Virus record (IMG/VR): IMGVR_UViG_2562617113_000019
Source of the DNA: a virus
Lineage: Duplodnaviria > Heunggongvirae > Uroviricota > Caudoviricetes
DNA: 43,127 nucleotides
Direction: 5' to 3' (one strand)
Shown here: positions 12,001-21,000 of the stretch, in pieces
Position numbering within the stretch: position 1 is the stretch's first letter
Layout: every line of letters starts with the position of its first letter
Position numbers: made by a program

Positions 12001-15000
12001 GAGCCGAAAGTTGTATCGGTAGCGAAAACATCTGGTAAAGCCTTTCCTCAGCCAGCCGGTGTTGCGTTACCAGTACAGGAAGCGGCAACACAGGAAGAAA
12101 TTAAAACAGATACTGTGGGGGACATTGTGCAGTCACTACCATCGTTCACTGAAACGCGAGCCAATGACCTGATTTTACCATCGCTGCAAATGGCAAACCG
12201 CGAACTGCGCCGGGCGAAAAGTCATGTCCAGAAGTGGGAGCGAGTCTGCGCCGCTCTGCGTGAGCTGAACAAGCACCAGGATATTGTCCGACAGATTGTC
12301 GATTCCTCCAGTCGTATTGTGTCGGAAAAGTGATTCCTGGGGAGGGCTTATGGCAAAAGTATTTACACAGGAAGAGCGAGGAAAAAATTAAAGGGCAGAT
12401 TGTTGATCTCGTACGCCAGAGCGGGCGAGAGACGTTACGACAACTGGAAGCTAAAATGGGGGCAACCAGATATCTGATAAGTATTCTCGCCAAAGAGCTG
12501 GTTTCGAGTGGTGAAGTATACAACTCTGGCTATGGGTTATTCCCGTCAGAACAGGCTCGTAAGGACTGGCAAAACGCCCGCAAAAAACTATCGAGGGCAA
12601 AGTCGAAGGAACCGGCTATGGTTGATCCTGACCTTATCTGGTCATTACCAGACGGAGAAATACGCCGCTACGACAGGTGTCAGAACATAATTTGTCGCGA
12701 GTGCCGGAAGAGTGAAGTTATGCAGCGTGTATTAGCATTTTATCAGGGAAATGTTCGGTATTTATTGAAGTGACGAGATTAAAGACCATTAATTCATATG
12801 TGAATTGACATTTTCATGGCACAGGATATAGCTAGCGTGGTTGTCTGTTTTGTACCATAAGCGGAAGTAGCTAACAACAGTTTGTGTGGAGCAACTGGGA
12901 GCAGGTCGGAACCACCGTGAACGAAAAGTAGAAAATCAACATATAGTAAAGCTTGAAAAATTAGTTCAACTATTATTATAGTGCTTTCGATGTTGTTAAA
13001 TGCGATCTGAAATCACTAAGAAAACTCGCTATAACGGCGTGCAAAGATTACTTAACTGAAATATTGATCTGTATATTTAAACGGAGTTAGTATGTCAGAC
13101 ACACAGAAAAACATTGATTTAATAAAAGATATTAATGAAATAGCCGAGAAAGGCATACAGGCTTTTGAATTGTCATATAGTGAATCTGGGCACCCAAATC
13201 TTCACGAGCCACTTTTGAGATGGTGCGATTTTATTTTACGATATATACCCCCAGTGAAACGTGATGTTTTTAAATCGGATCGATTCACTAAAAACATTCC
13301 AGATGATGCAAAAGCGGGATTGCAAAGAATAGAGGGATTATTTACTTCAGGTGGCGATGTCAATCCTTACCAGAGTAAAACATTGACATTATTGAATGAC
13401 ACAAGCGGTAAAAAAGCTGCGCAAAGAACGGATAACCTTTGGGCTGATTGGGGCATTCACCATCTTCACCTGTCATTAAACCCAGTTGGTTCAGGTGAAA
13501 AATACTCAGACCGCTCAGAATGGGTGTTATTCCTGAAGGTGTATGCTAATGCTGTTTTATTTATTGATATAAAAAGCCATGATAAAGACATCGAACCCAA
13601 CCTTTTTTCTCAAAAAGACTTGATTGAAACATTTATACGCAACTGGCCAGATGAGGCAGGAGTGTATGAGATGAAAGGTGTTTCAAAGCTGGCAATTAAC
13701 CAACCAATTACCGATGCAGACATCGCAAAATTGAGAAAGAATGGAATAAATCTCCCCTTTGAGGCAAACGGGAAGGTTTATGCACCATTAGGTATGGGAA
13801 TGACGACTGCTGTAACCTCTATGAGAGTTTCAATTTATAGAGATAAAATATGTAATTGGGCTAAACAAATAGAAGGCATATTCATGGATGAAGATGGCCC
13901 ATTCCTGAAGGAAGTGAAATCTCAGAATGTACAAAACCCTAAATTCGAATTGTATATGTATGATGGTGATATGTTCGGCATTACTGAGAAAAATATTGAT
14001 AAAGGCTGGATATTCACTAGAGGTAAATCCGACAACGTTTTCAGCTGTTTATTTGACTCATTGATGCCTGTGTGGGCCAGTCCTGTTGTATTGCAGTACT
14101 GGAAAAAGAACCCATAACAAAACGGTTTGACGAACCGAGACCCTCATGCCACCGTTCATATGGCGCGACGAATAATGATAAGTATGCCGCGCCATACGTT
14201 CAAATAAACATACAAGCATCAGTATAAACGTGCAGGCATACCGGTGCTTATATGATTAGACACATCATGGGGTTGACCTGCTCCCTGTTAATTATCACAG
14301 AACGCTTTTAGCAATGTCTGCTCATCGCTCACAGCGGACCTTCAACTCTGGTAACTTGTCCGCTTCGTGCCAAGAGCGGACATCAGGTACATCTTTTCTG
14401 GTCATACCTAGCAGTAGTCTAGCGTCAATTCGCATAAATAAGATACCGTTAGAAATACAAAGATCTGTTAATATGCAAATGAAGTAATAAATGGTGAAGC
14501 CCCAACTTACAGAGAGGAGCATCGCACCGTGAAGCTGTACATAATTGGAAACGGATTTGATTTACACCATGGTCTTGATACCAGCTATTTTTCTTTTGCC
14601 TATTTTCTGCGATCGCGCCAGAGGGATTCGTACAACAACTTAGTTGAGTTTGTCGGTTTCACAGACCTACCTGAAAATCTTGATGAACTGAATAAGGATG
14701 AACATCCTCTGTGGTCTGAATTTGAAAGTAATCTGGCATGGTTAAATTCTCAGGCCGTACTGGATGCATTTACCGATTCTCTCCCAAATCTGGGTGACCC
14801 AGATTTTCGTGATAGATACTGGCATGCTTTTGATATTGAAATGCAGCGAATCCTTGAAAATTTAACTGATGATCTTTTCACCCAGTTTACGTCGTTCATT
14901 TCCCAAGTTAAATATCCAGAGCTTACCTCTGATAAAACACTGCAACTATACAGTAACGGCATATTTATAAATTTCAATTACACCAGAACTATTGAGTACT

Positions 15001-18000: not shown

Positions 18001-21000
18001 TTAGCAGAATATCATTCCCAATGATCGGATTAAACCCAATCAATGTCTCAATGAATCTATCATAATTCGTTGTAATAACTGAGCCTATATTTCGACTTGC
18101 TTTTGCAAATAACTCCATTTCTGTTGCATACTTATCACCATCATTTATTTGATGTAGGTCTACAAGTTCTGATATAAATATTTTCATGCGACTGGCAGAG
18201 TAGTTTCCTGAAGCTGCATACTCGTAGTATTTGTCATTTATTCTTTTAAACTTACCGTTCCTATCAGCTTCTAATAATCTATTGAACTCTGTTTCAATTT
18301 CGCTAGCTACCTTTGGTAGATCAATTTCACCTAAAGAATTAGCGTTCCTGCCTGCGGCGTCAAAATAAAAGTCATGACTCCCTTTCATTTCGTAAACAAT
18401 CTTTTTTAGAAGTTCTGACCATGAGTAAGTGCCTACCAGATATCTCCGGCTAAACCCTGCACCAACAAACACTACTGGATGGTTTACGTAAGACTCCATG
18501 AATTTACTAAGATTCATTTATCCTTCTCCATAACAGGAATATTTATAGCTGATAAAGCATACAGCATCTTCGACGAAGATGCCTTCAATTTTGTTCACTC
18601 ATCATCCTATTCTACCTGTTTCATCACACAACAAGTCCAGAACAGCATTATGTATGCCATTGGGAGGGCATATGTATTAAATTAAGTTACGGTCGCAATG
18701 TCTTACATTCATCAAAAGTGAGGTAATATATATAATTTAGCAAAACTAACATTGTCACCACTGCCAGTTAGGGTGATGGGAATAAACAAGGCCTACAGGG
18801 ACTCTCAGCAACTGAACCCTCAGGTCGTTGATAATAATCCTCTCAGTTGATTATTTTCCCTCAGATCACTGAGAAATACAGGCTATTTCCGCTTTTCGCT
18901 CAAAGCGGACTAAAATGTTGGCTTGTGTCTGACTTAGCGCATTTTAGGAAGTGCTGGTGGTGACGGTTTGTTGTGTTGCACAGAAAAAATAGAATAAGTA
19001 CACCAAATAGTTTTATTGAGTCACCAGTGAGACATCCACATATTTATCAGCATATGCGAGTGTCAAATGCAGGAGGTTAACGTGCTGGTTGCGAAATGTG
19101 CACTGGCTATTGCGTTTGTGATGGCAATCTATGGTCTTGCTATTGTTCTTATGGATCACCTTTCTGATTGATTTCATATTGGCGAGGTAACGGGAGTTAA
19201 GTAGAATAGCTGCGGGTGCTTGAGGCTGTCTGCCTCGGGCATGAACACCAAAGGCAGATAGAGAAAAGCCCCAGTTAACATTACGCGTCCGGCAAGACGC
19301 TTAACATTAATCTGAGGCCACATCTATGCTTTGCATACGTAGATTAGCCTCTTACCGACCAAAAGGTCAAGGAGAAGCAGGCTATGAAGCAGCAAAAGGC
19401 GATGTTAATCGCCCTGATCGTCATCTGTTTAACCGTCGTTGTGACGGCACTGGTAACGAGGAAAGACCTCTGCGAGGTACGAATCCGAACCGGCCAGACG
19501 GAGGTCGCTGTCTTCACAGCTTACGAACCTGAGGAGTAAGAGACCCGGCGGGGGAGAAATCCCCCGCCACCTCTGATGTGTCAGGCATCCTCAACGCACC
19601 CGTACTTACCCGCTTCGGCGGGTTTTTTGTTGTGGTGGAGAAATTAGCTTTTTGTGTACTCTTTTAGCAGTAAGTCTTGAGGGACTGATTGTTGTAAATA
19701 GAATCGTGTTTGCTTAGTTAGCGCGCAGGGAGAAGAGGGATGGACCCTTCAGGGGAACGCTATTAATCTGGAAAATTCTATTTATGGACTTCAAGAAGTT
19801 GCGCAAAATTATTAATAAAGATGGCCTCTATGCAGTGCGCGTTGAAAATGGGGAAATTATTAGTTGTTACTGCATTCATTGCTCACGGGCTTTGCAACAG
19901 CCTAGTGGGGCTATGTTAATATATCTCTTGAATGGGCATGTGACGGACGGATTTATGTTGCGTGAAGATGAATTTGTCACATCATTACGGACATTAAAAG
20001 AAATTGGATTAAAAGCTGGCTTTTCTGCTTTTGAAGACGATTGAACTCATCTATAATTCAGCGCAGGGTTGACCCCCTGCTGAGTAACACCGTGCCACCG
20101 GAGAAAGCCGATGGCACATATACAACTGATCAAACATACCTCTTCTGGATTACTGCTCCCGGCAACATCGGAGAGTTGCGAATTCTTGCATCAAATAAAA
20201 ATAGGTGAGTGGATACACGCTGATTTTAAGCGCGTTCGTAACTACGCATTTCACAAGCGTTTTTTCAAACTCCTGCAACTCGGATTCGATTACTGGACTC
20301 CTGTCGGTGGGGCGATCACCTCTCGTGAACGAAAACTTGTGTCCGGTTTCGTTGATTATCTGTGTGACTCGGTCGGTCGGGAACATACGCCAGCCCTGAG
20401 TGATGCCGCAGAACAATATCTGAATACCATTGCGATACGCAGAACCTGCGATACGGCATTGCTAAAGTCATTTGATGCTTTCCGTGAATGGGTAACTATT
20501 GAGGCCGGATTTTACACCGAGCATTTTTATCCGGACGGTAGCCGTGGACGCAGGGCAAGATCTATCGCGTTTGCAAATATGGACGATACCGAGTTTCAGC
20601 AGGTTTATAAATCCGTACTGAATGTGCTTTGGAACTGGATCCTGTTCCGTAAATTTTCCTCACCGGAACAAGTCGAAAATGTTGCTGCGCAGCTGCTGGA
20701 GTTTGCGTAATGGTGGATTTGCGTAAAGCTGCTAAAGGCCATATGTGTACAGTCAGAATCCCCGGTTACTGCAATCACAATCCTGAAACATCTGTGCTGG
20801 CGCACTACAGGCTAGCGGGGACGTGTGGAATGGCGATAAAACCACACGATATGCAGGCAGCGATTGCCTGTAACTCATGTCACGATCTAATCGATGGGCG
20901 GGTAAAAACCAGCGATTACACCAAAGAAGAATTGCACCTGATGCATGCAGAAGGTGTTTTTCGCACGCAAGAAATCTGGAGAAATGAGGGATATTTATGA

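Follow-up and report, generated by a model that had tools for sequence, protein, structure and literature searches.

How are cargo genes exchanged at prophage hotspots that carry no obvious mobility genes? The question is raised by the 43,127-nt viral sequence IMGVR_UViG_2562617113_000019 (hereafter the window, always meaning this whole stretch), in which a short repeat recurs at the boundaries of four cargo genes. The window is a Rac/Qin-type lambdoid prophage of Escherichia coli NADC1036, whose sequence (NZ_CP076264.1) is identical to it. Our analysis establishes that the repeat is real and that it is the L half of a two-part site of about 70 bp, composed of an L site and an inverted R site, which separates cassettes from one another. 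The anatomy of these sites, the breakpoints found at them and their linkage to a small tyrosine recombinase gene point to site-specific exchange of the cassettes by an enzyme absent from the window, a mechanism that we regard as probable.

Detection of the repeat and of its second half

A preliminary description of the window had reported four copies of a motif in the same orientation (14326-14366, 15570-15589, 16719-16759 and 18897-18910), and these were borne out by a direct repeat search and by reading of the sequence, with gene annotation placing every copy between genes. The search returned one family of four 29-nt copies (D1, starting at 14311, 15555, 16704 and 18882) and a second consisting of a 73-nt match at 71% identity (D2, 14308-14380 versus 16701-16773), and direct reading of the first and third cores reproduced their reported agreement at 16 of 18 positions (CGCTCACAGCGGACCTTC versus CGCTCAGCGCGGACCTTC). 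The GTCCGCT described downstream of the motif is indeed present, but it marks the beginning of a further site, R, which is inverted and lies 18 nt past GCGGAC; similarly, the count of four stands for L, but a fifth element had been missed, namely an R site without L at 12843-12866, with which the array begins. Copy 2 has an R partner as well (15602-15625, with a decayed right half), and copy 4 is an L site without R.

The strength of this signal depends on how much of the site is considered. The 14-nt short motif with two mismatches is weakly above chance in the window (5 matches versus 2.1 expected, 4 of 100 shuffles reaching 5), whereas the full 23-nt arm gives 11 strand-hits at 6 sites versus 0.57 expected, a number reached in 0 of 100 shuffles. 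An nhmmer profile of 79 units, all of them from other genomes, was run against the 43-kb window and matched only five places in its whole length: 14308-14389 (E 2e-22), 16699-16782 (E 3e-20), 15554-15619 (E 2e-9, model positions 9-74), 18880-18910 (E 8e-7, L half only) and 12833-12877 (E 6e-5, R half only). Among 5426 complete E. coli genomes, the 79-nt unit was matched in 459, at a median of one place and a maximum of three, with none on plasmids. A generic intergenic repeat of the repetitive extragenic palindromic (REP) or bacterial interspersed mosaic element type, a possibility raised in the preliminary description, or chance recurrence could account for the marginal excess of the short motif. 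Both are contradicted by the full arm and the profile, and, as REPs occur in hundreds of copies per genome, the rarity of the element sets it apart from them; we consider this explanation refuted.

Site anatomy and array grammar

The L site reads (G/T)TCCGCTnnTCGCTCAnnGCGGAC and the R site, inverted and 18 nt further on, reads GTCCGCTnnGTGCCAnnAGCGGAC. Each spans about 24-30 bp, with inverted arms of 8-11 bp (AAnGTCCGCTC / GAGCGGACnTT) around an asymmetric 8-bp centre, and the sequence layout of each resembles that of a simple tyrosine-recombinase core site. The centre reads CTCGCTCA in L and TGTGCCAG (reverse complement CTGGCACA) in R, and R is an inverted L except at two fixed positions: of the 79 oriented units, 76 have T at R52 and 73 have C at R55, in place of the A and G, respectively, that a true palindrome would require. 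In these same units the centres are the most conserved part of the consensus, and the changes seen in the stems nearly all affect one side, compensatory pairs numbering about one per position. As single-stranded DNA, the consensus unit is predicted to form a single long hairpin in which C.C and T.T remain mismatched (-27.4 kcal/mol, z -7.4). Covariation through the spacer, first taken as support for this long hairpin, proved to be an artefact of counting near-palindromic units on both strands; once the units were oriented, the spacer was asymmetric, with a modal length of 18 nt and a range of 14-19 nt.

Beyond the single unit, the cargo segments follow a fixed grammar in which R always stands at the left and L at the right, and neighbours are parted by L-18 nt-R. 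This gives arrays such as R_L-R_L-R_L in one orientation throughout, and 149 R..L cassettes were counted in 123 oriented loci, with a median length of 1368 bp and a range of 223-7083 bp. The sequence following L is CTTC and that following R is GTTG, without a terminator-like T run. An Rfam scan at a permissive threshold returned only sok and weak unrelated matches, none of them on the arms, and a terminator scan of 12700-19400 made nine terminator-like calls, none on an arm.

Breakpoints and cargo turnover

Homologous cassettes in unrelated arrays share their sequence from the R centre (GTGCCA) to the L centre or end and diverge outside these limits. A comparable partition was obtained within the junctions themselves, where mutual information among the 79 units, treated as unrelated to one another, resolved three blocks (the left half of L; the right half of L together with the spacer and the left half of R; and the right half of R), with a mean z of 2.3 within the junction block versus 0.34 across the L centre and 0.40 across the R centre. 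This block structure fits crossovers that would take place inside the invariant centres.

The earlier reading of the copies as cassette junctions or recombination sites is supported by BLAST homology to other genomes, which stops exactly at the repeats, with Megablast matches bounded at window positions 16706-18911, 15558-16724 and 18885 onward. Backbone homology stops inside or at the end of the opening R site (R0) in 1702 E. coli genomes, and homology to the hokD backbone, found in thousands of genomes, begins at the terminal L site (L4; query positions 5886/5889). The cargo turnover that had been suggested as a check was also found, as other Rac/Qin-type lambdoid prophages retain the same R0 after DUF977 and the same terminal L before hokD with differing cargo between them. 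This cargo comprises a restriction endonuclease, a 1.5-kb open reading frame (ORF) and an IS30 remnant in one relative, and TetR, amidohydrolase, NTPase and SIR2 genes in another; elsewhere it consists of two hypothetical ORFs, of BCCT, DUF2254, LysR, GGCT and major facilitator superfamily (MFS) genes or, in E. coli 18-4, of three cassettes and a small integrase.

A candidate recombinase linked to the sites

The enzyme linked to the arrays is a tyrosine recombinase of 200-202 aa, whose sole domain is the Phage_integrase catalytic domain (Pfam E 3e-19) and whose catalytic R, HxxR, H (LLGH) and Y align with those of XerD, as is characteristic of the tyrosine recombinase superfamily. It belongs to no curated family, the NCBIfam model PRK09871 matching it weakly (E 8e-6, 25.5 bits versus a cut-off of 222), and it is 77-96% identical across Enterobacterales, Proteus, Providencia, Idiomarina and Cycloclasticus. 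In six pattern-derived loci the recombinase gene lies exactly between TCCGC..TCGCTCA upstream and CTGTGCCA..AGCGGAC downstream; with this position between L and R half-sites, the gene takes the place of the 34 nt that otherwise connect the two centres. The same half-site flanking was seen in E. coli, Erwinia and Rahnella, including the DUF977-hokD hotspot of E. coli 18-4, and Proteus arrays take the form R[c]L-R[c]L-R[c]L½-int-R½[c]L. When the search started from the protein, in a sample of IMG/VR, the arrangement was present in every close homologue with readable flanks, the upstream half-site lying 42-50 nt from the gene and the downstream one 26-28 nt from it.

Enzyme and sites have diverged together in one recombinase clade (59-62% identity), whose site sequences differ (..CCGGCCAGAAGCGG and CGGTTAGCGACC) and which has composite sites of that type nearby; a leader hairpin and a downstream hairpin overlapping R½ are kept in this clade, with a different leader sequence. 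Half-site linkage and this co-divergence, both read from sequence, support the view that the enzyme probably acts on L and R as their cognate recombinase.

The leader hairpin itself, 13 bp in length (ACTCAAATCTCC..GGAGATTTGAGT), covers the Shine-Dalgarno sequence and the start codon of the recombinase gene (locus L003, 3278-3335, and all other recombinase loci), which suggests, by analogy with the transposase genes of insertion sequences (ISs), that translation may be occluded. A further setting of the gene was encountered in marine Gammaproteobacteria (loci L176-L181), where a recombinase sharing 84% identity with that of E. coli lies between arsenic-resistance and copper/cus modules in a context resembling an integrative and conjugative element (ICE); an R-like centre is found upstream of the ars module, and several copies have IS insertions just downstream of the recombinase.

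Proposed mechanism and rival explanations

Site-specific recombination between like sites is favoured because of the anatomy of the sites, their linkage to the enzyme and the breakpoint data taken together, and cassette exchange through L and R is, on balance, the account we hold to be the better supported, with catalysis and the path of strand exchange being the parts that we infer. Under this proposal, a 200-aa recombinase made up of the catalytic domain only and supplied in trans would recombine L with L and R with R, its partners being arrays on prophages, ICEs or chromosomes, or an excised circle consisting of one cassette and one L-18-R junction. Cassettes would be inserted, deleted or swapped as a result, the different centres of L and R would prevent inversion by L-with-R recombination, and the observed grammar would be restored whenever an excised circle entered an L or an R site. 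In the case of the window, the DUF977-hokD moron hotspot of the Rac/Qin-type prophage would have received its single-gene anti-phage systems in this manner. The proposed L/R system would be a natural analogue of recombinase-mediated cassette exchange. An alternative substrate may be a folded single strand with L paired to R and C.C and T.T mismatches, by analogy with attC or CTX-phi, because the consensus unit folds into one long hairpin; the 14-19 nt range of the spacer fits as well.

Several observations weigh against enzyme-mediated cassette exchange. The recombinase gene was not found within the window, it is present in 928 of 5426 complete E. coli genomes (about 17%), and its product has no recognisable core-binding domain. 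R0, R2 and R3 of the window show partial decay, and for two of the three full units in it the predicted fold is no better than that of shuffled sequence. The breakpoint comparison covers only about seven independent cassette pairs, and the mutual-information test is uncorrected for kinship among the units. Homologous recombination at conserved linkers, moreover, would give similar comparative patterns.

This last point leads to the main rival, according to which the units are passive linkers, that is, conserved 70-bp boundaries swapped by RecA, RecET or Red and spread by hitch-hiking, with no dedicated enzyme. Breakpoints inside conserved repeats are expected of any homology-driven exchange, RecE is encoded by the window prophage and both RecE and RecT by its relatives, and most arrays, the window's included, are without the small recombinase. 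However, stretches of 23-70 bp at about 70-90% identity are a poor substrate for homologous recombination, and the breaks in linkage fall specifically within the centres. Passive linkers would also leave unexplained the fixed two-position asymmetry between L and R, the greatest conservation of the centres from Erwinia to Proteus, the embedding of the recombinase gene exactly between half-sites, and the co-divergence of enzyme and sites. We judge this rival unlikely, yet a serious one.

The two other explanations considered start from the inverted structure of the sites. Inverted, near-identical 24-bp ends bracket each cassette, and cassettes with both ends recur in unrelated contexts, as would be the case if R and L were the terminal inverted repeats of non-autonomous transposable cassettes (similar to mobile insertion cassettes or miniature inverted-repeat transposable elements) mobilised by a transposase in trans. 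Yet ORF clustering revealed no recurrent transposase family near the arrays, the largest cluster being LysR regulators, which are cargo; no target-site duplications were seen, the linked enzyme is a tyrosine recombinase, and abutment at a fixed, conserved spacer of about 18 nt in one orientation is unlike independent transposition, all of which makes this the least probable of the explanations left after the refutation of a generic repeat. Hardly more probable, and highly doubtful in our view, is an element acting at the transcript level, as also envisaged in the preliminary description, with hairpins serving as bidirectional terminators, insulators or mRNA-stabilising stem-loops and recombination being incidental. 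Each arm can form a stem of 6-8 bp that closes a loop of about 8-10 nt, a strong fold is predicted for the consensus unit as given above, and units stand between genes of either orientation; on the other hand, the arms lack a T tail, a terminator-like call and an Rfam match, the stems vary on one side with hardly any compensatory changes while the loops are the most conserved part, and the window units fold weakly.

Relationship to known systems

The element has a precedent in phage P2. The consensus R half matches three GenBank 'proviral Z-region' records, AJ512676, AJ512679 and AJ512683 (of P2-EC30, P2-EC45 and P2-EC58; Nilsson et al. 2004), at 93-96% over 25-28 nt under the annotation 'left inverted repeat'. 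In AJ512676, the inner end of this repeat (3..115) is an R site at 92-115, and the right repeat (1942..2032) starts with an L site at 1943-1965; as these records annotate R and L as inverted repeats, the element was therefore already known in P2. The window element is the same sequence element as the P2 Z/fun inverted repeats (Nilsson, Karlsson & Haggard-Ljungquist 2004, Mol Biol Evol 21:1), and all four window cassettes share with them the bracketing of variable, AT-rich foreign genes in inverted orientation. The location differs, since the P2 repeats sit between G and FI and the window array between DUF977 and hokD in a lambdoid prophage, while the element does not. The window array also differs from the P2 locus in holding four cassettes with internal L-18-R junctions, and what it shares with the 90-113-bp P2 repeats is only the inner 24 bp or so and about 45 bp of the left terminus.

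Among other recombination systems, integrons are the closest in appearance. They consist of cassette arrays with imperfect palindromic sites of about 60-70 nt and a GTTRRRY core, have a tyrosine recombinase gene beside the array, and also occur as clusters of attC sites lacking an integron-integrase (CALINs). The arrays described here likewise have promoter-independent cassettes, palindromic junctions of about 60-70 nt, an adjoining tyrosine recombinase with half-sites, recombinase-less copies and anti-phage cargo, the last of which is also reported for integrons (bioRxiv 10.1101/2024.07.02.601686). They differ in that the linked 200-aa recombinase scores 16.6 and 15.9 bits on the integron-integrase models versus cut-offs of 435 and 265; that L and R are conserved in sequence rather than in structure alone, with almost no compensatory pairs; and that the L-18-R junction comprises two complete, inverted core sites with different centres, with a site at both cassette ends and no GTTRRRY. 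In the pdif modules of Acinetobacter plasmids, XerC/XerD sites in alternating inverse orientation bracket resistance modules. The likeness lies in modules placed between inversely oriented core sites and in the recurrence of the same module in different contexts. By inspection, however, the L/R consensus is unlike dif (11-6-11), only the 11-8-11 layout being similar, and the arrays have a linked, dedicated small recombinase instead of host XerCD and double L-18-R junctions instead of a single shared site. The literature on pdif modules includes PMC7399989 and PMC9455709. In attP(+) of CTX-phi, two inverted dif-like sites pair when the DNA is single-stranded, and the fold yields one functional site whose centre is mismatched. 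The two close, inverted core sites with mismatched centres resemble L-18-R, whose consensus is predicted to fold likewise, a single-stranded substrate being hypothetical here; the enzyme and sequences are unrelated. Finally, the FimB/FimE-type tyrosine DNA invertases, also of about 200 aa, are alike in size and in their catalytic-domain-only build, but by score the recombinase is not a member, and L and R do not form one pair of 9-bp repeats with a promoter between them.

Within the searchable literature, which does not extend to Nilsson et al. 2004, the site sequences were not found in any paper, nor was a paper found that describes the recombinase-array system, and the later hotspot literature (PMC9122126 and PMC10121019 among it) does not mention the element. 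As far as could be found there, the lambdoid-prophage array, the general array grammar and the link to a recombinase are new. Whether L/R and the 200-aa recombinase together form an undescribed cassette system of Gammaproteobacteria, integron-like yet mechanistically distinct, with two heterospecific core sites, and shuttling among P2-like and lambdoid prophages, ICEs and islands, is a proposal that we put forward tentatively, at slightly less than even confidence.

The array in the window

The window holds a four-cassette, recombinase-less copy with partly decayed sites, in the order R0, PD-T4-7, L1-18-R1, AbiH, L2-18-R2 (decayed), an ORF of unknown function, L3-18-R3, SIR2/PDC-S25, L4 and hok/sok; all parts are on the plus strand unless stated. 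At the outer left terminus, a tentative decayed arm (..CATGGCACAGGA.., 12798..12842) was placed upstream of R0 by alignment to the P2 'left inverted repeat', window positions 12798-12868 aligning locally with positions 46-117 of AJ512676; the unit profile did not recognise this arm. R0 (GTCTGTTTTGTACCATAAGCGGAA, 12843..12866) follows just after the DUF977 gene and opens the array. Cassette 1 (12867..14315, G+C 0.37-0.41) carries the PD-T4-7 defence gene at 13092-14117 (PADLOC E 6e-141). It is followed by junction unit 1 (14316..14381), with L1 at 14316-14339, an 18-nt spacer and R1 at 14358-14381, for which the single-stranded fold is -14.6 kcal/mol (z -2.9). Cassette 2 (14382..15559) carries AbiH at 14529-15506 (Pfam AbiH E 3e-58; also called AbiH by PADLOC), and junction unit 2 (15560..15625) consists of L2 at 15560-15583, an 18-nt spacer and the R2 partner already mentioned, which was read directly.

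Cassette 3 (15626..16708) contains a 290-aa ORF of unknown function (15747-16619) with no Pfam match and a weak PADLOC match, and other E. coli islands contain the stretch that runs from L2 to L3 at 93% identity. Junction unit 3 (16709..16774; L3 at 16709-16732, an 18-nt spacer, R3 at 16751-16774) is also present in a P2-like prophage (L002, 5005-5068). The centre of R3, CGAGCCAG, is a hybrid with one diagnostic position of L type and the other of R type; it is common to the P2-like copies of the SIR2 cassette (L002, 5046-5068), and A at that position occurs in 2 of 79 units. A rare exchange of L with R may have left this hybrid centre behind, or it may have arisen by point mutation. Cassette 4 (16775..18886, minus strand) carries a SIR2-family defence gene at 17009-18517 (Pfam SIR2_2; PADLOC PDC-S25 E 7e-143), and the terminal L site, L4 (18887..18910), lies upstream of hok/sok and closes the array. 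Of the four cassettes, two carry single-gene defence systems that are validated or candidates, and one carries the ORF of unknown function.

The gene order around the array in this Rac/Qin-type prophage is as follows, with recE, kilR, sieB, cI/cro-like genes, ydaT, replication genes, DUF1627 and DUF977 annotated ahead of the four cargo genes, and hokD, nin-region genes, toxin morons, lysis genes and structural genes after them. The G+C content across the array is 0.31-0.45 versus about 0.50 in the backbone. In the left part of the prophage, sieB is annotated as frameshifted (window 7494-7949 region; L001 2462-2951). A complete hok/sok module stands directly after the terminal L (Rfam sok, 105 bits, at 19214-19389; hokD at 19384-19539), followed by a sub-threshold, isrK-like match at 19548-19628 (33 bits versus a gathering score of 50). 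The RefSeq annotation further records two toxin-like moron pairs in the late region (21928-23179 and 24783-25917), one combining a scabin-related ADP-ribosyltransferase with a subtilase-family AB5 binding subunit, the other, located after the lysis genes, an enterotoxin A family protein with an 'enterotoxin'.

Distribution and breadth of cargo

Pattern scans found the element in 43 IMG/VR contigs and in at least 120 species-representative genomes, mostly Enterobacterales (Erwinia, Pantoea, Rahnella, Klebsiella, Citrobacter, Enterobacter and Serratia), with arrays in P2-like prophages, other lambdoid prophages and chromosomal islands across this order. About 20 exact matches to the L pattern in high-G+C Actinobacteria and metagenome-assembled genomes had no partner sites and were taken as chance.

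The SIR2 cassette with its flanking sites recurs in P2-like prophages at 95.7% identity, where the layout between the tail-fibre assembly gene (G) and the tail sheath gene (FI) is R, DUF6602, L-18-R, SIR2, L. In all five fetched P2-like prophages (L002, L193-L196) the SIR2 cassette lies downstream of DUF6602 across L-18-R, and the window copy is without DUF6602; the two genes may or may not form a two-gene defence system. A P2-like prophage with the SIR2 cassette alone, sought for a chimeric R site, was not among these five. In the Qin prophage of K-12 MG1655 (L192, 5982-6005 and 6974-6996), R and L bracket flxA beside relBE-hokD, in an orientation relative to hokD opposite to that of the window array.

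Cargo elsewhere includes LysR regulators with dehydrogenases, reductases and MFS transporters. A 5.7-kb operon for a TonB-dependent receptor and an ABC transporter forms a single R..L cassette (L003, 6069-11765; L174, 307-6003), found in two E. coli islands with different neighbours. Iron-uptake modules, arsenic modules and metabolic modules under LysR regulation are likewise found between R and L, so the element is not specific to defence but is a device for plasticity in general.

Significance

Earlier work on prophage and chromosomal defence hotspots gives no settled mechanism of exchange: exchange by cos ends and homologous recombination was offered as speculation only by Rousset et al. 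2022 (PMC9122126), and the mobilisation of integrase-only islands is described as unclear by Hochhauser et al. 2023 (PMC10121019). A pair of 24-bp sites with a fixed grammar and a candidate enzyme makes the mechanism of exchange a question that is simple to assay, and the L and R sites provide a sequence handle with which cassettes can be delimited and their cargo mined. If true, site-specific exchange through these sites would explain the turnover of single-gene defence systems, and of metabolic and metal-resistance operons, at hotspots without obvious mobility genes.

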